DNA from: Dehalococcoidia bacterium
GTDB taxonomy: Bacteria; Chloroflexota; Dehalococcoidia; Plut-88900
Direction of reading: 5' to 3'
NCBI GenBank assembly: GCA_963668115.1
Contig: OY764147.1
Coordinates: forward strand, 281,449-345,448
Length of the DNA stretch: 64,000 bases
Both the position numbers and the translations under genes were made by a program. The notes under the pieces were generated by a model that saw only the letters and a list, made by a program, of their open reading frames with translations, was not told the origin of the DNA and searched no databases. Below are positions 1,418 to 56,547 of the stretch, piece by piece (positions within the stretch are counted from its first letter, which is position 1; each line of letters opens with the position of its first letter).

Positions 1418-2575
1418 TTAGACAGATAGGGAGTAGAGTTTGGCACAGTTGTCCCACATTACTTTCTTTTTGGCTTCTTCGGACAGGGGTAGCTTGAGGA
1501 AGCTGTCGGTGGCGAAGGGGTAGATGGAGTCGGGGTGGGGGTAGTCGGTTGAGAATACGAAGTTGTCAGTGCCGACCCAGTCGATGGCGTATTTGGATGG
1601 CTCTTCGTCGGGGTCAATGACGGCGTAGCATTGTCGCTTGAAGTACTCGCTGGGGGCCATGGAGAGGTACTTGGAGGCCTGCTCCTGCCGGTGTTCGTAA
1701 TGTTCGTCCATACGCCAGAGCCAGAAGGGGAGCCAACCGGCGTTGCATTCGAGGTGAGCTACCCGGATCCCGGGGAACTTCTCCAGGACGCCACCGGCGC
1801 ACATGCAGAGGGCGGCGTACATCTGCTCGACGGGGTGACAGGCGACGTGGCCCATGGTCCATATGCGGTCGGGTTCGTCGTAGAAGCGGTCGGCAATGGC
1901 CTGGGGGAGGTTGCACTTGAAGGTCTCGTGGAAGGTGACGGCCATGTCCAGTTCCTGGCAGACGGCCCAAAGGCGGTCGTACTCGTCGCTGTGCCAGTTT
2001 CGTCCTCGTATGGGGTTTGGGTGGAGGTAGATGCCGACGAAATCCAGCTCTTCACGGGTGCGCCGGACCTCGGCGACGGCGTTGTCGATGTTGGAGACGA
2101 GGATCATGGCGATGCCCTTGAGCCGGGAGGGGCTTTCGGAGCAGAAGTCGGCGAGCCAGTTGTTGTAGGCCTTGGCGACGGCGTCGGCGAAGGGTTCGTC
2201 TTCGTAATCGACACCTGCGACGACCATGCCTCGAGAGGGATAAAGGTTGGCAACGTCCAAACCCTCGACCTCCATGGCGTTGACCTGGGAGACGGGGTCG
2301 AAGCGGCTGTCTATGGCTTCCTGCATGTATTCGTTGCTTCGGGAGTGAGAGATGTTGAGCCGGGCCTTTTCCTCCTCGTGCTCCAGGTGTTTCTGGTTGG
2401 AGAGGAAAGCGCCAAGAATGTCACCTTCAATGGTGGTGTTCATGTCGACGGGGTCTTTGCTGGTGCCGACGGGGGCCCGGTCCTTGTAGGCGGTGTCGAT
2501 GTAGTTGAGCCAGAGATCCCAAGGCTCGTGGGTGTGCATGTCACTGTCCATGACTTTGAAACCGTTCTTTGCCAT
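1418..2575 (-). CDS. Amidohydrolase family protein (Amidohydro_2-like)
   Basis: DSDMH metal motif, FSTDYPH, NCAKLY C-terminus. Confidence 0.9.
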   Translation of the reverse strand: MAKNGFKVMDSDMHTHEPWDLWLNYIDTAYKDRAPVGTSKDPVDMNTTIEGDILGAFLSNQKHLEHEEEKARLNISHSRSNEYMQEAIDSRFDPVSQVNAMEVEGLDVANLYPSRGMVVAGVDYEDEPFADAVAKAYNNWLADFCSESPSRLKGIAMILVSNIDNAVAEVRRTREELDFVGIYLHPNPIRGRNWHSDEYDRLWAVCQELDMAVTFHETFKCNLPQAIADRFYDEPDRIWTMGHVACHPVEQMYAALCMCAGGVLEKFPGIRVAHLECNAGWLPFWLWRMDEHYEHRQEQASKYLSMAPSEYFKRQCYAVIDPDEEPSKYAIDWVGTDNFVFSTDYPHPDSIYPFATDSFLKLPLSEEAKKKVMWDNCAKLYSLSV

Positions 2576-2591
2576 TGGGGGCTCCTTTCAG

Positions 2592-3749
2592 CTAATTGGC
2601 GATGCCGTATAGCCTGGCGCAATTGTCCCAGAGGACTTTCCTCTTGGATTCTTCAGATAGGGGAAGTTTCAGGAATTCGTCGATGGCGAAGGGGTACTTG
2701 CCGTCGGCGTGGGGGTAGTCGGTGGAGAAGACGAAGTTGTCGTCGCCGATCCAGTCTACGGCATATTCGGCGGGGCCTTCGTCGGGGTCTATGGCGAGGT
2801 AGCACTGGCGCTTGAAGGTCTCGCTGGGGAGGACGGACTGGTAGCGGGAGGCCTGTTCCTGGCGGTGCTCGTAGTGCTCGTCCATGCGCCAGAGCCAGAA
2901 GGGGAGCCAGCCCGTGTTGCACTCGAGGAAGGCGACCCGGAGTTCCGCGTATTTGTCCAGGATGCCGCCGGCGCAGAAGCAGAGACAGGCGTACATCTGC
3001 TCGATGGGGTGGCAGGCGACGTGGCCCATAGTCCAGATATGGTCGGGCTCATCGTAGAAGCGGTCGGCGATGGCCTGGGGAAGGCTGCACTTGAAGGTCT
3101 CGTGGAAGGTTACGGGGACGTCCAGGTCCTGGCACTCCTGCCATAGGGGGTCGTAGACGGGGTTGTGCCAGTTGCGGCCCTGCACGGGATTCGGGTGGAG
3201 GTATGCGGAGAGGAAGCCCATTTCGTTGTGGGTGCGGCGCACCTCGGTGACGGCTTCCTCAACGTCGGTGGCGAGGACCATGGCGGCGGGACGCATCTTG
3301 TCGGGGTCCTGGCTGCAAAAGTCGTGAATCCAGTCGTTGTAGGCCCGGGCCACGGCACCCGCGTAACGGCCGTCCTGGTAGGGGACGCCTGCGACCGACA
3401 TGCCCCGGGTGGGGAAGATAATGGCCAGGTCGAGCCCCTCGGTGTCCATGGCATGAAGCTGGGACACGGGGTCGAAGCCGCGGTCTACGGCAGGCTTCAG
3501 GTACTTGTTCCCGTGCTCGGCCTCTACTTTCCGGCGGCTTGTTTCCTCCTCGTTGCTTTGGATGTCAGCATCGGCGAGGAAGGCGGCGATGGGCTTTCCC
3601 TGAATGGCCATGTTCATGACCAACTGGTTTTCGGTCATCCCGACGGGCGCGAGGTCACGGTACTCGGGGTCGATGTTATTGAGCCACACATCCCAGGTCT
3701 CGTTGACGTGCATATCGCTGTCCATGACCTTGAAGCCGTTCTTGGTCAT
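2592..3749 (-). CDS. Amidohydrolase family protein, tandem paralog of 1418..2575
   Basis: Start reassigned to MTKNGFK (ATG 3749, GAAAGGA upstream), giving the same length and N-terminus as the neighbour; DSDMH and FSTDYPH motifs. Confidence 0.9.
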   Translation of the reverse strand: MTKNGFKVMDSDMHVNETWDVWLNNIDPEYRDLAPVGMTENQLVMNMAIQGKPIAAFLADADIQSNEEETSRRKVEAEHGNKYLKPAVDRGFDPVSQLHAMDTEGLDLAIIFPTRGMSVAGVPYQDGRYAGAVARAYNDWIHDFCSQDPDKMRPAAMVLATDVEEAVTEVRRTHNEMGFLSAYLHPNPVQGRNWHNPVYDPLWQECQDLDVPVTFHETFKCSLPQAIADRFYDEPDHIWTMGHVACHPIEQMYACLCFCAGGILDKYAELRVAFLECNTGWLPFWLWRMDEHYEHRQEQASRYQSVLPSETFKRQCYLAIDPDEGPAEYAVDWIGDDNFVFSTDYPHADGKYPFAIDEFLKLPLSEESKRKVLWDNCARLYGIAN

Positions 3750-3862
3750 AGCAAGAGTCCTTTCGGTGTGGATTGGGGTCTCGGGGGTCTGGATGGGGTC
3801 ATGATACTCCGAGGGTTGGGGGTAATCAAACCTGTGCATTCGTCCGGTAGATTGGCGGCACA

Positions 3863-4486
3863 CCGGGCTTTTATTCGGTTGTGGGGTTTCGTTTTCTGTT
3901 TTGTCTGTTGGGTTTTGGGTAGGCGATGGAGGTCCGGGACTCTGATGCAGGATGACTATGGCACCTATGCCGACGCTTCCAGTCCGCCATAGCGGATGTA
4001 TCACATCGGCGTCTGTACTGCCTAATCCCCACACATGCCATTGGGGACTTGCCTGTGTCGAGGGCGTCCCTGGGTGGGGCAATCCGTCCTGCATCAGCGC
4101 TCGACCGCTGAGCGGGACAGCATTCGGCTCGAAGCCGTCACGGGCGGAACGGAGTCCTCCGATGATTACGACGGCGGAGCCGCGTAGGGGCACTGAGGCC
4201 CTGATCCCGGTAACGCCGGGCCGTAAGATTTCGCCGGCGAGTCAATGCCAGCGACATAGGCGTCCCAAGATAGGGAGCACCGATTCGGCAGAGGCCCCTT
4301 AGCGGGGCATACCGCGTAGAGCAGATGGACCTTCCATCGCCTGGATGGTTAGGGAAGGGGCACGGGACCCTTGTAGTGAGGGGGTGACATCCCTGACGTC
4401 TGTGGGATGACATCCTCGGATGGGTCGGGTGGGCTTCCCTGGGTTTTTGGTTCCTCCTTAAGTTATTGGATTAGTGTTCGCGAACG
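3863..4486 (-). ncRNA. Putative large structured ncRNA, family copy 1 (unrecognised)
   Basis: Promoter at 4493-4521; closing helix 4327-4342 with 3921-3935; nested 11-bp helix 3942-3952/4087-4097; motifs shared with copies 2 and 3. Confidence 0.7.
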
Positions 4487-4492
4487 GAGGGT

Positions 4493-4521
4493 ATGATAAC
4501 GCCTTTGCTCAGACGTGTCAA
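4493..4521 (-). promoter_or_regulatory. sigma70-type promoter TTGACA-17-TATCAT driving ncRNA copy 1
   Basis: Minus strand ttgaca cgtctgagcaaaggcgt tatcat; nearly identical at 19285-19313. Confidence 0.85.
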
Positions 4522-4544
4522 GCAAATGTGCGGGTTTGGAGGGA

Positions 4545-4940
4545 ATTCCCTCCGGCCCCTTGGGGAACCCTCACCTTCTGGCCCCCTCTCACGCCATAGG
4601 CGCATCTTCGACCCTTAGGGCCTCTAGTTCAGTACTGGGGAGAAAGGGAGGGAACGGAGGTGGATTGCGAGGATGAAGGTGATTATTCCGGAGGGATGGA
4701 TTCCCGACTACTCGGGAATGACGAAAAGAGGTGGGTGGGGATGATGGGGGTGAGCGGTGGGCTGGCGCAACAGATTCACGCCATAGGCGCACGCCCAGGC
4801 GCATCTTCGACATCTCCGACCTAGCGGGGCATCGGAATGGGAAGGGGAGGGGTGAGTTGCGGTGGTGTAGGTGAGTGTTTCGGAGGGATGGATTCACGCC
4901 ACAGGCGCATCTTCGACCTGCCTCCGCAGGAATGACGAAG
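4545..4940. repeat. Mosaic of REP-like palindromes with nested short inserts
   Basis: GGATTC..GAATGAC hairpins at 4698-4722 and 4890-4936, repeated acgccataggcgcatcttcgac-like unit, conserved gtttcggagggat-like lead-in. Confidence 0.75.
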
Positions 4941-4960
4941 GAGGAAGGGGACGATAGACT

Positions 4961-6658
4961 TTAGATCGAGAGCATGGATTGGGCTTCGGGGACGGCGTTG
5001 GAGAGGGGCGCCATGCGTTTTTCTAAGGTGGAGCGGTCGGTGATTTCTACGGCGTCCTGCTTGAGGTTTCGGGGGCTTACGGTGAGGCGCACGGGAATGC
5101 CTAGGAGGTCGGCGTCGTTGAACTTGACGCCGGGGGACTCGTCGCGGTCGTCGTAGAGGACTTCGATGCCGGCGGCCTGGAGGGAGTCGTAGAGCTGGTC
5201 TGCGGCCTCGGCGACACCGGGCCGGTCGAGGGATAGGGCGCAGATGTGGACGTGGTAGGGGGCGATGGGGTGGGGCCAGACGATGCCGTGCTCGTCGTGG
5301 TTCTGCTCCATGGCGGCGGCCATGAGCCTGCCGACACCGATGCCGTAGCATCCCATGACGATGGGCTTTTGCCGGCCGTCCTGGTCGGAATAGTAGGCGC
5401 CGAGGGACTCGCTGAAGAAGGTGCCGAGCTTGAAGACGTGGCCAACCTCTATTCCACGGGTGATGCTGAGGGGTTGGCCACAGTTAGTGCAGCCCTGGCC
5501 GGCTTCGACCTCGGCGATATCAGTGATGGCGTCGGCGCGAAAGTCTCGGGGGTAGTTGGCGTTGAGGAGGTGGGTGTCGGGCTTGTTTGCGCCGACCACG
5601 AAGTTGTCGCCGAGCTCGATGGAGTCATCTGCAATGCACTTCAGGTCGCCGCGGCCGATGGGGGAGGCGGAACCTGCTACAAGGCCCGCGGCCTTGACCT
5701 CTTCGTCGGTGGCGAGCCGGAGGTCGGTGGCGTGGAGGAGGTTCTTGAGCTTGACGTCGTTGACTTCCAGGTCGCCGCGGATGACTACAAAGACCATTTC
5801 GCCGTCGGCGGTGTAGAAGACGGCTTTCAAGGTTTTGGACTCGGGGACGCCGACGAATTCGGCGAGACCCTTGATGGTCTTGACGCCGGGTGTTGCAACT
5901 TCTTCAAGGGGCAAGGGGCCGGTCCTGGGCTGGTCGGACTTCACGCCCGAGGCCCGCTCCATGTTGGCGGCGAACCCGCAACCAGGACACTGAACTATCT
6001 GGTCCTCGCCGCTCTCGGCGATGAGGATGAACTCGTGGGAGTCCTTGCCGCCGATGGCTCCACTGTCTGCCTCGACGGCGAGGGCAGGTAGGCCGCAGCG
6101 CCGGTAGATGTTCCGGTAGGCCTGGACCATCTTGTCGTAGCTGACATCGAGGCCGGCCTGGTCTACGTCCATGCTGTAGAGGTCTTTCATGTCGAACTCA
6201 CGGACACGCATGAGACCGGCGCGGGGCCGGGGCTCATCACGGAGCTTGGTCTGTATCTGGTAGGGCATGCGGGGCATGTCCTTGTAGCTGTGGATGTGCT
6301 GGACGGCCATCTGGGTGATGACCTCCTCGTGGGTCGGGGCTAGGCAGAGGGGTCTGCCGCGTCGGTCCTGCAGCTTGAAGAGGTTATCCCCGAAGGCGGA
6401 GGCCCGGCCGCTGGTCTCCCAGAGCTCAAGGGGCTGGATGACGGGCATTTTGACTTCCTGCCCGCCTGCTGCATTCATCTCTTCCCGGATGATGCTTTCG
6501 ATCTTGCGAAGGACCCTCCATGCTATGGGCATGTAGCTGTATACGCCGGCGGAGACCTGGTGGACCATACCGGCCTTGAGCATTAGCCGATGGCTTATGG
6601 ACTCGGCCTCGGCGGGCTCGCTCCTGAGGGTCTTTCCGAACATCCGGGAGAGGCGCAT
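4961..6658 (-). CDS. proS: Proline--tRNA ligase
   Basis: PTHEE, RDEPRPRAGLMRVREF, GIEVGHVFKLG, MGCYGIG motifs; editing insertion. Confidence 0.97.
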   Translation of the reverse strand: MRLSRMFGKTLRSEPAEAESISHRLMLKAGMVHQVSAGVYSYMPIAWRVLRKIESIIREEMNAAGGQEVKMPVIQPLELWETSGRASAFGDNLFKLQDRRGRPLCLAPTHEEVITQMAVQHIHSYKDMPRMPYQIQTKLRDEPRPRAGLMRVREFDMKDLYSMDVDQAGLDVSYDKMVQAYRNIYRRCGLPALAVEADSGAIGGKDSHEFILIAESGEDQIVQCPGCGFAANMERASGVKSDQPRTGPLPLEEVATPGVKTIKGLAEFVGVPESKTLKAVFYTADGEMVFVVIRGDLEVNDVKLKNLLHATDLRLATDEEVKAAGLVAGSASPIGRGDLKCIADDSIELGDNFVVGANKPDTHLLNANYPRDFRADAITDIAEVEAGQGCTNCGQPLSITRGIEVGHVFKLGTFFSESLGAYYSDQDGRQKPIVMGCYGIGVGRLMAAAMEQNHDEHGIVWPHPIAPYHVHICALSLDRPGVAEAADQLYDSLQAAGIEVLYDDRDESPGVKFNDADLLGIPVRLTVSPRNLKQDAVEITDRSTLEKRMAPLSNAVPEAQSMLSI

Positions 6659-18471: not shown

Positions 18472-18507
18472 TCCGATGCGGCCGTGGGGGCCGTGGAAGG
18501 GGCGGGG

Positions 18508-18657
18508 TTTTGATTGAACGTTGATTGAACATTGATTGAACTCGTAGCTGTTTTGATTGAACGACGCCTGAAGGGGATTTCTGGGGATTTCGCGTGGTGC
18601 AGGGGTGCGGATTTTTGATTGTTTTGCGGTTTCAGGCACGGCTTTGATTGTTTAAGA
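18508..18657. repeat. Iteron-like element with 4x TTGATTGAAC plus 2x TTGATTG, copy A
   Basis: Units at 18510, 18521, 18532, 18553; whole element repeated at 54958-55118. Confidence 0.85.
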
Positions 18658-18738
18658 AACGGGGAGGGAATCCCCACCCATCCCCGCATCCGGGATGGAT
18701 TCCCGACTTCTCGGGAATGACGGAAGTAAGGGCGGGGA

Positions 18739-18783: not shown

Positions 18784-19278
18784 CCGGGTTGTTTGGTTGT
18801 GGGGTTTGGGTTTGCATTTTGTGTGTTTGGGAGGGGGTTGGCGATGGAGGTCCAGACTGCGCAGCCCCGCTGTTTGGTGGGTCAGGGTCGAGTAAGTCTC
18901 GGTGTGGGGCATACCTGTCCACCGGCGGCGCCCGGTCATAGTGAGGGCGGGGGGCGCCAACCCGCCACCGTCGGCCATGGTGTGGAATGCACCGATGGCA
19001 AGGACGGTGGAGTCCCTGGAGGGCCCTACGGCCCGGTTCCCGCCGTGGGCGGGGTGTTGTGCTTCGCCGGCAAGTTGAAAGCCGGTTACGTAGTGCATCC
19101 TGTTAGGGAGCACCGAGGGTGCAGGGTCTCTATAAGAGACGGCCTGCAGGTGTTAAGTCGATGGACCATCCATCGCCTGGGGGGTTAGGGAAGGGGCACG
19201 GGGACCCGGGTGGGGCCGGGTGGGCTTCCCTGGGTTTCTGGTTTCCTCCTTGTGTTACTGGGTTAATGTTCGCGAACG
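18784..19278 (-). ncRNA. Putative large structured ncRNA, family copy 2 (unrecognised)
   Basis: Promoter 19285-19313; closing helix 19162-19177 with 18840-18854; leader and tail homologous to copy 1; pseudoknot module homologous to copy 3. Confidence 0.7.
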
Positions 19279-19284
19279 GAGGGT

Positions 19285-19313
19285 ATGATAACGCCTTTGC
19301 TCAGGTGTGTCAA
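19285..19313 (-). promoter_or_regulatory. sigma70-type promoter TTGACA-17-TATCAT driving ncRNA copy 2
   Basis: Minus strand ttgaca cacctgagcaaaggcgt tatcat. Confidence 0.85.
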
Positions 19314-19547
19314 GCAAATGTACGGGTTTGGGGGAAAGTTGGAGGTGAGTGGGGATGATGGGGGTGGGTTTAGGCAAGGGGGAGGGGGTGAGTTGCGGGG
19401 TTGTAGGAGGTTGTTTCGGAGGGATGGATTCCCACGGAGGTGGGAATGACGGGTAAAAAGGGTGGGAATGATCCGCCATAGGCGGACAGGCTGGGGTGGG
19501 GGGTTGGGGTGATATACTCGCGGGCACTTTATTCGTGGGACTGGATA

Positions 19548-42044: not shown

Positions 42045-44513
42045 CTAGGCAGGTACGGGCTCCTTGGCCTTTTTGGAAATGAGAGACCTGGCGTTCTTGC
42101 ACTTCGGGTAGCCGGTGCAGGCGATAAATTTACCCCTCCGCCCGACTTTTATGGCCAACGGTTTACCGCATTTTTCGCAGGCTTCATCGATTAGTTCCGG
42201 CTCCGGGCGAGCGGTCTCGCCGGGTAGGGGCCGGGTGTTCTTGCACTTGGGGTAGGTGGTACAGGCGAGGAACTTGCCCCTGCGTCCGGACCTGATGACC
42301 ATGGGGCTATCGCACTTGTCACAGACCTCTGAGGTCTCCTCGGGGATTTCGCGCTCTTCACCGGGAAGGGGTCGGGTGTTTTTGCACTTGGGGTAGGCGG
42401 TGCAAGCGAGGAACTTGCCTCGGCGTCCGGATCTGATGACCATAGGGCTATCGCACTTGTCACAGACCTCGTCAGTCTCCTCAGGGGCTTCGCGTTCTTC
42501 GCCTGGGAGGGGTCGGGCGTTCTTGCATTCGGGGTAGCCGGAGCAGGAGAGGAACTTGCCATAACGTCCGACCTTGATGAGCATGGGGCGTTCGCATTTC
42601 TCGCAGAAGATGTCGGTTTCCTGGGGCTCCTCACCGGGTATCGGTTTGGCGTTCTTGCACTTTGGGTAAGAGCTGCATGAAAGGAACCGGCCGGTCCGCC
42701 CCGACTTGACTTCCATGGGTTCGCCGCACAGATCGCAGGCAATACCGGTAGCCTCGTCGGGGATGGCGTCGCCGGCCTTGTCCAGGGCCTGCTGGAAGGA
42801 CTCATAGAAGTCCCGGATGACCGGGACCCACTCTCGTTCCCCGCGGGAGATCTCATCGAGTTCCTGCTCCATCTCGGCGGTGAAGCCGAGATTTACGATG
42901 TCGGGGAAATGGTCGCTGAGTAGGGAGTTGACTCGAAGCCCGAGTTCCGTCGGGTGGATGCGGCTCTTTTCCTTGTGGATGTACTTGCGGTCCTGGATGG
43001 TAGAGAGGGTGGGAGCGTAGGTGCTAGGCCGACCGATGCCGTTCTCCTCCAATGCCTTGATAAGGGAGGCCTCGGTATAGCGAGGGGGAGGCTGGGTGAA
43101 GTGCTGTTTCTGCTCAAGCCCGAGGAAGTCCAATACCTCTCCGGGGGAGAGGTCGGGGAGGGGGGGCTGCTTGTCGTCGGACCGGTCGTCGGCGTCTTCC
43201 TGGTAGAGGGTGAGGAAGCCGGGGAAGACGGTGACGGAGCCCGTGGCGCGGAACAGGTAAATGGGCGATGCAGATGTGGAGGTCTTGTTTTCGGCCTCTA
43301 TGTGGACCGTGGTCTGGTCGATGAGGGCTGCGCTCATCTGGCTGGCAAGCATGCGCTTCCAGATAAGCTCATATAGCTTCATCTGATCCTTGTCCAGGTA
43401 GACCTGCAGGTAGTCGGGGTCACGGAAGCAGGAGGTGGGGCGGATGGCCTCGTGGGCTTCTTGGGCACCTTTAGCCCGAGCCTTGTAGGCGCGGGGGGAG
43501 GAGGGGACGAACTTGTCGCCGAACTTTTCGGAGATATAGCGCCGGGCCTCGTTGCGGGCCTCGTTGGAGACGGCGGGGGAGTCGGTACGCATGTAGGTTA
43601 TGAGACCGATCTGACCCTCGCTTCCAACTGATAAGCCTTCGTAGAGCTGCTGGGCCACTGCCATGGTCCTTTTGGCGGTGAAGCGGAGCTTACGGCCGGC
43701 TTCCTGTTGGAGGGTGCTGGTGGTGAAGGGAGGGGCGGGCTGTCGCTTGGCTTGCTTACTATCAATCCTGGCGACGGAGTAGTGGGCGCCGTCCAGGGCT
43801 GTGGCTATCTCACTGCTGGTTTTTTCATCGGGTATGGTGAGCTTGCCGCGTTTTCCTTTCTGGTTGTGTAAAACGGCACGGAAGGCGGTTTTCCTGGGGG
43901 ACTTCTGCTTCTTCAGGTCGGCTTCGATAGACCAGTACTCGGTGGGGACGAAGGCGGTGATTTCGGCTTCTCGGTCCGACACCATTCGGAGGGCAGCGGA
44001 CTGGACCCTGCCGGCGGAGAGGCCTTTTTCGAGTTTGCGCCAGAGAAGGGGGCTGAGCCGGTATCCGACCACGCGATCCAGGATGCGTCGGGCCTGCTGG
44101 GCGTCGACGAGGTCCATGTCGATTTCCCGGGGATTGTTGAAGGCCTCGGTGATTGCGCTCTTAGTGATTTCGTGGAAAACGACGCGTCGTATGGGAATGT
44201 TCTTGATCTTGGAGGCTTCGAGGAGGTGCCAAGATATGGCTTCGCCTTCGCGGTCTGGGTCTGTGGCCAAATATACGGCGCTGGCGCTCCTGGCGGCCTT
44301 GGCCAGGTCCTGAACGGTCTTTTTCTTGTCCTTGGGAACCTCGTATGCAGGTTCGAAGTCGCTGGCTACGTTAACTCCGAAGCGGTATTGAGGAAGGTCC
44401 CGGACGTGTCCGAGGGACGCCTTGACGTTGAAGTCCTTGCCCAGGATCTTGCCGATGGTGCGGGCCTTGGCGGGGGATTCTACGATTACCAGTTTTTCAG
44501 TCATTGAATTCAC
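42045..44513 (-). CDS. topA: DNA topoisomerase I with five C-terminal Zn ribbons
   Basis: VESPAKA, DPDREGE, SAGRVQS, ITYMRTD. Confidence 0.97.
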   Translation of the reverse strand: MNSMTEKLVIVESPAKARTIGKILGKDFNVKASLGHVRDLPQYRFGVNVASDFEPAYEVPKDKKKTVQDLAKAARSASAVYLATDPDREGEAISWHLLEASKIKNIPIRRVVFHEITKSAITEAFNNPREIDMDLVDAQQARRILDRVVGYRLSPLLWRKLEKGLSAGRVQSAALRMVSDREAEITAFVPTEYWSIEADLKKQKSPRKTAFRAVLHNQKGKRGKLTIPDEKTSSEIATALDGAHYSVARIDSKQAKRQPAPPFTTSTLQQEAGRKLRFTAKRTMAVAQQLYEGLSVGSEGQIGLITYMRTDSPAVSNEARNEARRYISEKFGDKFVPSSPRAYKARAKGAQEAHEAIRPTSCFRDPDYLQVYLDKDQMKLYELIWKRMLASQMSAALIDQTTVHIEAENKTSTSASPIYLFRATGSVTVFPGFLTLYQEDADDRSDDKQPPLPDLSPGEVLDFLGLEQKQHFTQPPPRYTEASLIKALEENGIGRPSTYAPTLSTIQDRKYIHKEKSRIHPTELGLRVNSLLSDHFPDIVNLGFTAEMEQELDEISRGEREWVPVIRDFYESFQQALDKAGDAIPDEATGIACDLCGEPMEVKSGRTGRFLSCSSYPKCKNAKPIPGEEPQETDIFCEKCERPMLIKVGRYGKFLSCSGYPECKNARPLPGEEREAPEETDEVCDKCDSPMVIRSGRRGKFLACTAYPKCKNTRPLPGEEREIPEETSEVCDKCDSPMVIRSGRRGKFLACTTYPKCKNTRPLPGETARPEPELIDEACEKCGKPLAIKVGRRGKFIACTGYPKCKNARSLISKKAKEPVPA

Positions 44514-45669: not shown

Positions 45670-45761
45670 TGGCGGAGAGGGTGGGATTCGAACCCACGAG
45701 AGAGCTTCCGCCCCCTACGCGATTTCCAGTCGCGCCTGTTCGGCCACTCCAGCACCTCTCC
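45670..45761 (-). tRNA. tRNA-Ser(GGA)
   Basis: GGAGAGG acceptor stem, anticodon loop CTGGAAA, long variable arm, GTTCGAATC, encoded CCA. Confidence 0.95.
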
Positions 45762-54803: not shown

Positions 54804-54957
54804 TCCGTCCTCCGACTCGGGTGCAGGACCAATCAATGGAGACCGGCACCACACTAGGTTTGGGAGATTTTACGGATGAGGCGGAAGTTTGCACAAGTTA
54901 CCGTTCCGGTCCGGCGGGATGACGGGACGCGGGTTTTTCTTGATTTGTGGGGGTGGT

Positions 54958-55118
54958 TTTTTGATTGAACGTTGATTGAAGTTTGATTGAACTCGTAGCT
55001 GTTTTGATTGAACGACGCCTGAAGGGATTTCCGGGGAATTCGCGTGTCGCAGAGGGCAAGGGGATGGGGTGGGTTTTTGATTGTTTTGCGATTTCAGGCA
55101 CGACTTTGATTGTTTAAG
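54958..55118. repeat. Iteron-like TTGATTGAAC element, copy B
   Basis: Units at 54961, 54972, 54983, 55004; homologous to 18508-18657. Confidence 0.85.
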
Positions 55119-55233: not shown

Positions 55234-55459
55234 AGTTCAGTACTGGGGAGAGGGGACGGGGCCACGCCCCACCCGACACCCGGGAGGGCAGGTCTCGTGC
55301 CTGCCTCTACAGAGGAGGACGGGAGAGGGGAGGGGATGGAGTGAGTTGCGGGGTTGTAGGTGATCGTTTCGGAGGGATGGATTCCCCACGACTTCTCGGG
55401 GGCAGGCTCTGCCTCCGCAGGAATGACGGTGGGAAGGGCGAGTATGACGAAGAAGGAAG

Positions 55460-56290
55460 GGAGGGGGTGGAAGGTCCCGGACGGTTTGTGCAGGAAGTCG
55501 GCGACGCCTGTACCGATGCGGGGTGTCCGCCCCTGGGGACGGTCCACACCAGCGTCGAATCTGCGACAGCCCCATACTTCCGAGAGGGTGTGGACGAGAC
55601 GCGAGAAATTCTCGCTCTGGGGCAGCCTCGCCCACCGGAAGTGCTCTACCACCCTGAGGGATGGGAGCGGAGACCCGTGACCGCCGTTCGTAGTCGGAAG
55701 CTCTCCGGTTGTGACGACGGTGGAATCCTTGCCCCATACTTCCGATAGGGTATGGACGAGACGCGAGAAACTCTCGCTCTGGGGCAGCCTCGCCCACCGG
55801 AAGTGCTCTACCATCCTGAGGGATGGGAGCGGAGACCCGTGACCGGCGTTCATAGACCGGAACATGCCGATGGTGACGACGGTGGAATCCGAGAAGGGTT
55901 CTGTGGCCCGATGGAGCAGCTTAACACCGTGCTCCTGAGCGTCGCCTGACGGGGCGAAACCGTTGCGACCTATGAGTGGGGCGCTCACCTGGCAGTTGCC
56001 CTTGAAGAGGGTCTGCCTTGATTTGTCCGGGGACATTCCATGTGAGGGGCGGGACGGTGATTGATCGCTGCGAAGGACGAGGCGTTGGGCCTTTGGGCAG
56101 CGCTTGTAGTGGGTGTTGGGATGCAGGATGTGAGGTGGAAAGAGAGTGAAGAGGAGGCGCGTGTCGTGGGCCGGGCGTTGGGGTGCCGCTCGGGTGAGAC
56201 GGGGCCTATGTAGGCCGGTGCGGCTCATGGGACTCCTTTGTTCCTTTTCCTTTCCTGTGATGGGCACCGAGGTATGGGATCGGCGTCCTG
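55460..56290 (-). ncRNA. Putative large structured ncRNA, family copy 3, with duplicated 162-nt module
   Basis: Promoter 56297-56325; closing helix about 56026-56040 with about 55468-55482; motif identity with copy 2. Confidence 0.65.
55569..55890. repeat. Tandem duplication, 162-bp period
   Basis: Units start at 55569 and 55731; near-identical except for a variable hairpin. Confidence 0.93.
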
Positions 56291-56296
56291 GTGGGT

Positions 56297-56325
56297 AGTA
56301 TAGCACGAGGGTTCAGATAGTGCAA
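56297..56325 (-). promoter_or_regulatory. sigma70-type promoter TTGCAC-17-TATACT (extended -10) driving ncRNA copy 3
   Basis: Minus strand ttgcac tatctgaaccctcgtgc tatact. Confidence 0.75.
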
Positions 56326-56354
56326 ATGTTCAATTTAGAAGGGCTGGAGGGGGA

Positions 56355-56547
56355 GGCGTGAGCGGGCGGGGTTGTAGGTGAGTGTTTCGGAGGGATGGAT
56401 TCACGCCAATGGCGCATCTTCGACCCACCTCCGTGGGAATGACGGGTTAAAGGGGCGGGAATGACGGGGGAAGGGAGTCGGGGTGAGTGGCGAGGTCAGG
56501 GGCGAGTGTTTCGGAGGGATGGATTCCGGCTCTGGGGCCGGAATGAC
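56355..56547. repeat. REP mosaic (two GGATTC..GAATGAC units with conserved lead-in)
   Basis: Hairpins at 56397-56443 (with 22-nt insert) and 56521-56547. Confidence 0.75.

Follow-up and report, generated by a model that had tools for sequence, protein, structure and literature searches.

Candidate non-coding RNA genes with a common promoter, leader and tail and exchangeable structured cores in one genus of Dehalococcoidia

The window analyzed here, a 64,000-nt stretch of a Dehalococcoidia genome, contains three members of a dispersed family of promoter-bearing structured units. We tentatively interpret these units as independently transcribed genes for structured non-coding RNAs that are built on a shared chassis and have exchanged their cores by recombination; as part of this reading, at least 13 fold classes would be plugged into one common expression chassis. 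Each unit, with its promoter, putative operator, stabilizer-like leader, fold, tail and hairpin, is read as a self-contained transcription unit, given that the mobilization routes searched (reverse transcriptase, Y1 transposase and TnpB) gave no candidate next to a unit, that Rho and RNase III are encoded, and that sense-strand intrinsic terminators were not found.

The first-pass annotation had counted three copies in 64 kb and had proposed collecting further copies genome-wide. In the single-contig genome (3.01 Mb), BLAST with the 5' 125 nt of the unit gave 61 matches, and with the 3' 90 nt 60 matches. Pairing of the two sets identified at least 59 complete units of 411-938 nt, far more than the three originally claimed, on both strands and spread round the chromosome. 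Together, the 59 units account for 38,969 nt, or 1.29% of the genome. About eight further variants (two units with diverged tails, four with a second, type-B promoter and leader, copy 3 of the window among them, and two extra loci carrying related cores) bring the family to approximately 65 copies.

Composition of copy 1 and of the shared chassis

Copy 1 and its surroundings, together with copies 2 and 3, have the following features in the window:

3871-4543, minus strand: copy 1, a member of a large dispersed family
4538..4553, minus strand: 16-bp GC-rich palindrome GGAGGGAATTCCCTCC, read from the sequence, abutting the 5' edge of the conserved unit
4521-4493, minus strand: unit promoter TTGACA-17-TATCAT, 11 of 12 consensus matches
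4485-4476, minus strand: 10-bp palindrome GTTCGCGAAC at about the expected transcription start (+1), a putative operator
4459-4453, minus strand: Shine-Dalgarno-like AAGGAGG, no start codon after it, in nearly all 59 aligned leaders
4351..4440, minus strand: leader hairpin, AGGGAAG (4440-4434) pairing with CUUCCCU (4357-4351), from alignments
about 4421-4371, minus strand: optional module inserted at the apex of the leader hairpin, from alignments
4342-3922, minus strand: class-0 structured core, 421 nt, closed by helix 4342-4327 with 3935-3922
3921-3871, minus strand: C/A-rich, G-poor conserved tail, 51 nt, possibly a Rho loading site or protein platform
3867-3831, minus strand: 3' hairpin module with conserved CCAAYC-type loop, a few bases before the next -35
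3829-3801, minus strand: separate promoter of the downstream gene, TTGATT-17-TATCAT (consensus match)
3746-2592, minus strand: Amidohydro_2 family gene (Pfam), downstream of copy 1 and outside the unit
18789..19335, minus strand: copy 2, with the promoter and leader type of copy 1, a class-6 core (19178-18840) and tail
18390-17506, minus strand: rpsB, downstream of copy 2, with its own promoter-like site at 18471-18442
55467..56326, minus strand: distant family member (copy 3), with thrS on one side and a CoA-transferase gene on the other

Most of what had been read from copy 1 at first sight was borne out, including the minus-strand promoter, the palindrome at the predicted start and the A/C-rich tail. 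The chassis is well conserved in the family, with a near-invariant promoter of the sigma-70 type. The exact sequence TTGACA-17-TATCAT occurs in 55 of the 59 units, and the leader is about 90% identical among copies, with optional hairpin modules at one apex. At the site around +1, other units carry the variants GGTCGACC and GTTCGAAC, which are also palindromic, and about 12 units carry the non-palindromic GTCCGAAC. At the position of the 16-bp palindrome of copy 1, many units have a similar sequence, GGGGGAATTCCCCC. The tails consist of 47% A, 40% C, 8% G and 5% U (59 tails), and are followed by three kinds of hairpin-bearing flank. As judged by eye, the loop of the 3' hairpin module is kept across units and its arms vary.

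A model of the leader (R1) places the leader hairpin at no fewer than 31 sites in the genome, with E-values that are rough. Of 23 sequencing runs listed for the locus, none was of RNA, and some with a low share of it are labelled sponge metagenome. Contigs from four DNA runs, one of them with this label, were mapped to 2600-6600; these contigs are short and repeat copies cross-map. The sole clear joint, from 4370 to 4421/4422, corresponds to other copies that do not have the optional leader module.

Sense-strand intrinsic terminators were not found in the units (regions of copies 1 and 2 scanned), and the genome encodes Rho and RNase III. A search for antisense targets of the tail returned low-complexity matches only, of 14-21 nt. 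On the opposite strand, the leader antisense scores as a weak intrinsic terminator in copies 1 and 2 (4425-4442 and 19216-19233, both plus strand), with a 5-bp stem and a subsequent T-run, which might halt polymerases arriving at the unit promoter from the other side. Likeness to an rRNA leader or promoter was considered and rejected: the region upstream of the 16S gene is unrelated, and the one unit in the vicinity lies 2 kb upstream of 16S with a gene in between.

The homology of copy 2 was upheld, since it shares promoter (19313-19285) and leader with copy 1 at 87% identity over 105 nt. Copy 3, which had been described as a further homologous unit, agrees with this description in part. It has a related closing helix and shared internal motifs, and it is counted as a member because of these two features only. 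Its promoter (56326-56297) is a different one with only 9 of 12 consensus matches, its leader is of type B (AAAGGAG, then ATG) and differs from that of copies 1 and 2, and it has no C/A tail. The core of copy 3 (56042-55467, 576 nt) contains an internal 162-nt tandem duplication (55569-55890) and represents a 13th class, beyond the 12 classes of the paired units.

Several other repeats were noticed in the window. Arrays of three to five GTTCAATCAA-type repeats with an 11-bp period lie at 18499-18589 and 54950-55040, one approximately 60-130 nt upstream of the rpsB promoter and the second upstream of the CoA-transferase gene; such arrays are also found near genome positions 138500, 443400 and 1135100. 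In this GC-rich genome, they resemble iterons or phased upstream elements rich in A/T. Small hairpin repeat families, for example GTCATTCCC..GGGAATCCATCC and TCACGCC.NGGCGCATCTTCGACC, crowd the intergenic regions of the units (4645-4723, 4837-4937, 19373-19454, 55326-55404, 56344-56444, 1380-1413 and 18692-18725), and in each case the C-rich strand has the orientation of the downstream gene. Copy 1 lies upstream of the first gene in a pair of neighbouring Amidohydro_2-type paralogues (1433-3749, offset 1174 nt), which are 70-79% identical at the DNA level. At 42073-42771, a 141-nt repeat occurs five times in tandem (61-100% identity with the reference copy) and could encode a repeat-domain protein.

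Structure, strand and constraint of the cores

The cores of the paired units fall into 12 classes of 200-545 nt, with two to eight copies each. All of them are closed by GGCGAUGGA/UCCAUCGCC. The inner part of this closing helix covaries between two superclasses in all 59 units: it reads GGUCC/GGACC in classes 0, 6, 7 and 10, and GACGC/GCGUC in the remaining classes. This covariation across classes is the clearest single evidence for structure. In copy 1, the 15-bp closing helix with one bulge, as first described, is present in the minimum-free-energy fold of the core (422 nt, -201.8 kcal/mol, z -5.39, with 0 of 100 shuffles as good).

For one class, sequences from relatives could be added. We aligned 38 class-0 cores from nine species and folded the alignment with RNAalifold, which gave 76 pairs with 98.3% of cells paired. 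Both sides have changed in 10 pairs. Column shuffles gave 6.1 +/- 1.2 such pairs, with 3 of 500 reaching the observed number, and slid controls gave 2-7. The covariation support from this alignment is real but moderate. Together with the compensatory changes in the closing helix, it agrees with the earlier statement that structure is kept despite sequence change. Long unpaired stretches are also invariant, in 38 of 38 class-0 sequences.

One argument of the first-pass annotation did not hold. It had stated that mismatches become G-U pairs on the minus strand only, in agreement with the promoter. When G-U cells and A-C cells were counted, there were 48 versus 34 in helices predicted on both strands, with 32 other mismatches, 192 versus 238 with symmetric helix extension, and 23 versus 19 in the class-0 alignment. 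The strand argument fails because the helices are strand-symmetric. As neither strand shows a G-U/A-C asymmetry, the helices are almost purely Watson-Crick, with mismatches that resemble the raw mutation spectrum. The antisense strand folds almost as well as the sense strand, with z -3.93 and an alignment energy of -78.8 for antisense versus -86.1 for sense. The conserved promoter is the sole evidence that favours the sense strand. Strand-symmetric pairing speaks against our preferred reading as independent RNA genes, as it is unusual for an RNA that is selected on one strand.

Sequence constraint was assessed by comparison of this organism (G000) with eight other species of the genus (G001-G008). 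Compared with G000, class-0 cores have an identity of 85-87% in G001, G003 and G005 and of 87-94% in G006-G008. At the four-fold degenerate sites of gyrB and rpoB, identity with G000 is only 41-66% for G001-G005, and 60-90% for G006-G008. Since core identity is far above that of four-fold sites between the same species, the class-0 cores appear to be constrained, which points to purifying selection on the core sequence. Recent horizontal exchange could produce a similar identity between species.

The four-fold sites differ between the two genes in the comparison of G000 with G006-G008, with 83-90% identity for gyrB but only 60-66% for rpoB. This suggests recent cross-species recombination around gyrB, where the unit class also differs.

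Neighbouring genes, distribution and alternative explanations

Gene orientation was judged from crude ORF and GC3 calls. By the crude ORF calls, 47 of the 59 units are co-oriented with the next ORF, a number that rises to about 52 of 59 after inspection. ORFs upstream of the units show no such preference (29 in the same and 30 in the opposite orientation). About half of the units (30/59) lie in divergent intergenic regions. The 12 orientation exceptions were re-inspected by GC3: five units are convergent with a real-looking gene, whose 3' end is 30-352 nt away, two are convergent at a distance of about 1 kb, and five have a co-oriented gene next. The downstream ORFs form 43 BLAST clusters that are unrelated to each other. 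By Pfam, they include genes for S2, RpoB, GyrB, UvrA, Def, Amidohydro_2 and CoA-transferase proteins (rpsB, rpoB, gyrB, uvrA and def for the first five); NusA, LeuRS and KatG were named by eye from the N-terminal sequence.

Orientation, divergent intergenic location and core housekeeping neighbours all fit an alternative, which we consider unlikely, namely that the unit is a cis-acting upstream module for the downstream gene and that any core class would serve. Such a module could act as a strong promoter at a distance, followed by a long, structured leader with conditional read-through (a Rho-controlled attenuator), or it could be an insulator or topology element, so that transcription and folded RNA or DNA affect the activity of the proximal promoter. 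The position of the 3' hairpin module, which in many units ends a few bases ahead of the -35 of the next promoter, is also in line with a local role. Co-orientation can also be explained by selection against a strong promoter that fires into a gene, and the five units that face a convergent gene have no gene to lead. The 85-87% identity of a class across species, including unpaired stretches, is hard to explain if any structure serves.

Orthologous loci were compared in the relatives for four genes (gyrB, rpoB, proS and rpsB), in addition to the comparison of class 0. All nine species have a unit upstream of gyrB, although its class varies, which again favours a cis-acting module. The unit is of class 2 in G000 and of class 0 in G006-G008; G003 and G004 have weaker class-0-like matches (188-215 nt at 73%), and in G001, G002 and G005 the leader is of type B and the core of the kind seen in copy 3. 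The rpoB and proS loci argue in the opposite direction. At rpoB, the unit is of class 1 in G000, of class 7 in G006 and G008, and unclassified in G007. G001, G002 and G005 have no unit there and keep the same promoter, with homology to G000 beginning 3 nt before the -35; no BLAST match was obtained for the rpoB locus of G003 and G004. At proS, the copy-1 locus, a class-0 unit is found downstream in G000, G006, G007 and G008, and no unit was found within 1.5 kb in G001-G005. At rpsB, the copy-2 locus, the unit is of class 6 in G000, of class 0 in G001, and of class 11 in reversed orientation in G002 and G003, with partial or no matches in the others. Taken together, the four loci indicate that positions either persist or turn over, and that core replacement does not follow the neighbouring gene.

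That the units do not depend on the next gene is further supported by a second promoter at copies 1 and 2 (promoter-like sites, by consensus matches) and at rpoB, by the rpoB promoter that is kept in species without the unit, and by the different classes at orthologous gyrB, rpoB and rpsB loci. A riboswitch or other 5' leader would have no promoter between itself and the gene, and a riboswitch would have a fold tied to gene function; intervening promoter-like sites (copies 1, 2 and rpoB) and variable class (gyrB, rpoB and rpsB) do not agree with either expectation.

Outside the genus, the family was hardly detected. By BLAST, all 8 of the other species in the genus were positive and none of 3 further genera in the family, and one weak match (E 5e-4) came from 29 other families. 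The R1 search, which covered 151 genomes of the class, was positive for 4 of 4 congeners sampled and 0 of 2 other genera of the family; the 144 remaining genomes gave one borderline match (E 0.003). When species-representative genomes were scanned for a pattern, all 75 stretches obtained came from eight Dehalococcoidia MAG records, and the same pattern matched one contig among JGI metagenome contigs. Within the genomes searched, the family is essentially confined to one genus.

About 65 copies, 1.3% of a genome and restriction to one genus are also what might be expected of selfish dispersed repeat DNA. According to this explanation, which we regard as quite unlikely, the units would be non-autonomous elements that carry a promoter and spread through recombination or with the help of an unknown enzyme. 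What maintains the hairpins would then operate on DNA, such as quasi-palindrome correction or single-strand DNA intermediates, and a few donated promoters would be the most that the host gains. Strand-symmetric Watson-Crick helices with a mutation-like mismatch spectrum are in its favour, as are the variable presence at rpoB, proS and rpsB, the reversed orientation at rpsB in G002 and G003, and the location of units among other small repeat families.

Against a selfish element, the genome (single contig, 92.7% complete) gave no matches to RVT_1 and none to Y1_Tnp. The lack of a reverse-transcriptase match also disfavours the 'mobile RNA' option of the first-pass annotation, and with no RVT_1 and no intron or retron matches in Rfam there is nothing to indicate a retroelement. 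The lone TnpB-like gene (genome 2059103-2059303) lies away from the units (nearest at 2044563 and 2103777) and adjoins none of them; an omega RNA, by contrast, would flank tnpB or iscB. By eye, target-site duplications or terminal inverted repeats were not seen in 59 flank pairs, and the 15-bp inverted repeat encloses the core only, not the whole unit. The units thus lack the hallmarks of REP/BIME/REPIN or MITE-type elements (a cognate transposase, for which Y1_Tnp was searched, or inverted repeats with target duplications). The defining feature of mobile promoters, a near-identical promoter before non-homologous genes, is present, but it covers only about 60 nt of the unit. Constraint well above that of neutral sites across species is likewise not expected of selfish DNA, with the reservation that horizontal exchange could mimic it.

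The possibility that the cores are nests of small dispersed repeats was rejected, because representatives of the 12 core classes match only two further loci outside the units; a selfish origin is also difficult to reconcile with cores that are not built from repeats occurring elsewhere.

A known RNA family or a protein-coding gene overlooked by simple reading is very improbable, because there is no Rfam match above chance inside units, no codon periodicity and a large number of 1-nt indels. At the gathering score, Rfam 15 matched only a tRNA in the whole window (45673-45761, minus strand, 89 nt with a long variable arm, 54.5 bits). With E-values up to 10, the region 3700-4700 gave four chance-level matches of 16-18 bits. 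With E-values up to 1, nothing was found inside units at nine loci representing 9 of 12 classes (not 5, 9 and 11); matches outside units were tRNAs and one sub-threshold sX15. The units scanned thus reached the gathering score of no Rfam 15 family, including those for tmRNA, RNase P, 6S, group I/II introns, riboswitches, OLE, GOLLD, ROOL and HEARO, in agreement with the first reading, which had seen no signature of tmRNA, RNase P, 6S, introns or riboswitches. Its conclusion that the transcript encodes no credible protein stands as well: variable columns lack 3-base periodicity in all 12 classes (p 0.09-1.0), and indels in the core classes are mostly of 1 nt. Literature searches on titles and abstracts found no description of such elements.

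A possible RNA gene system and its relation to known systems

Our preferred reading, independently transcribed RNA genes, suggests the following mechanism. The palindrome at +1 would be an operator, through which one repressor could control all copies. The AAGGAGG without a start codon may bind 30S subunits and so protect the 5' end. The 'STAB-SD' of Bacillus is a precedent for such 5' protection. The folded core would hold Rho off until the G-poor, C-rich tail is transcribed; Rho would then load at the tail and terminate the transcript ahead of the next promoter, either at the 3' hairpin or beyond it. Core exchange by homologous recombination or gene conversion would be made possible by the conserved flanks, which measure about 150 nt and 50 nt. 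The RNAs would act in trans, possibly as protein or ribosome sponges, RNP scaffolds or catalysts. Some observations do not fit such genes easily. A single trans function does not obviously need two to eight copies per class, and co-orientation in about 52 of 59 units together with the persistence at gyrB hints at a local role.

A more far-reaching version, which we regard as somewhat unlikely, would be a protein-free system of RNA cassettes, in which the genus maintains at least 13 constrained large folds as a library. They would be expressed from one co-regulated chassis at about 65 loci and be shuffled by recombination through the shared flanks. For this, the folds would have to be new functional RNAs, be it catalysts, sponges, or assemblies of RNP or RNA-only type, and be induced together as a regulon. 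If true, this would be an organization of non-coding RNA genes without a described parallel.

Large 'ornate' bacterial non-coding RNAs of unknown function, such as OLE, GOLLD and ROOL, have been discussed (PMC12286853). Like them, the units are several hundred nucleotides long and non-coding, with many conserved helices, conserved unpaired stretches and neighbours that give no function. As a kind, such RNAs are non-coding, longer than 400 nt, and have conserved unpaired regions and a covariation-supported multi-helix structure; our data support structure and constraint of the units, which are candidates for this kind, with pairing that is strand-symmetric. Unlike the units, OLE, GOLLD and ROOL have one or few copies per genome and a single fold, and they are represented in Rfam with no match to the units; the latter have about 65 copies in one genus and at least 13 folds that share promoter, leader and tail.

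Putative mobile promoters and promoter reuse have been described in prokaryotes (PMC3575422). The units are similar in having near-identical promoter regions before unrelated genes of one genome, and differ in their 0.4-0.9 kb of constrained folded sequence and their own 3' module, and because the inspected downstream genes keep their own promoters.

Another comparison is with REPIN elements (PMC8049555). As in REP/BIME, REPIN and Correia elements, there are many intergenic copies with hairpins and strand-symmetric pairing, and the distribution is lineage-specific. REP/BIME, REPIN and Correia elements are 30-300 bp long with one consensus, unlike the units, which measure 411-938 nt, are asymmetric with a promoter at one end, and have at least 12 unrelated core classes. 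Some REP-type elements depend on a RAYT/Y1 transposase, for which the genome has no match.

Paralogous small-RNA genes, each with a similar promoter of its own, are known from cyanobacteria (Yfr2 or NsiR1) and Vibrio (Qrr). The units resemble them in having several paralogous loci per genome with similar individual promoters. Yfr2, NsiR1 and Qrr are shorter than about 150 nt and occur in 2-12 copies with one conserved fold or seed; in the units, by contrast, conservation resides in promoter and flanks, and large unrelated folds replace one another as the body.

Under any reading, automatic annotation is expected to leave the units blank or to call false ORFs. Should they have a local or selfish role, a compact genome of the symbiont type would have 1.3% of its length filled with promoter-bearing repeats that lie just ahead of core housekeeping promoters, which bears on annotation and on the reading of transcription in uncultured Chloroflexota. 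If the units prove to be functional RNAs, at least a dozen new large folds of 200-580 nt would be available from one small genome, and the natural variation from nine species would be material for structure work and for the role of large bacterial non-coding RNAs. A shared chassis with exchangeable cores would then be a new form of organization and evolution of non-coding RNA genes.
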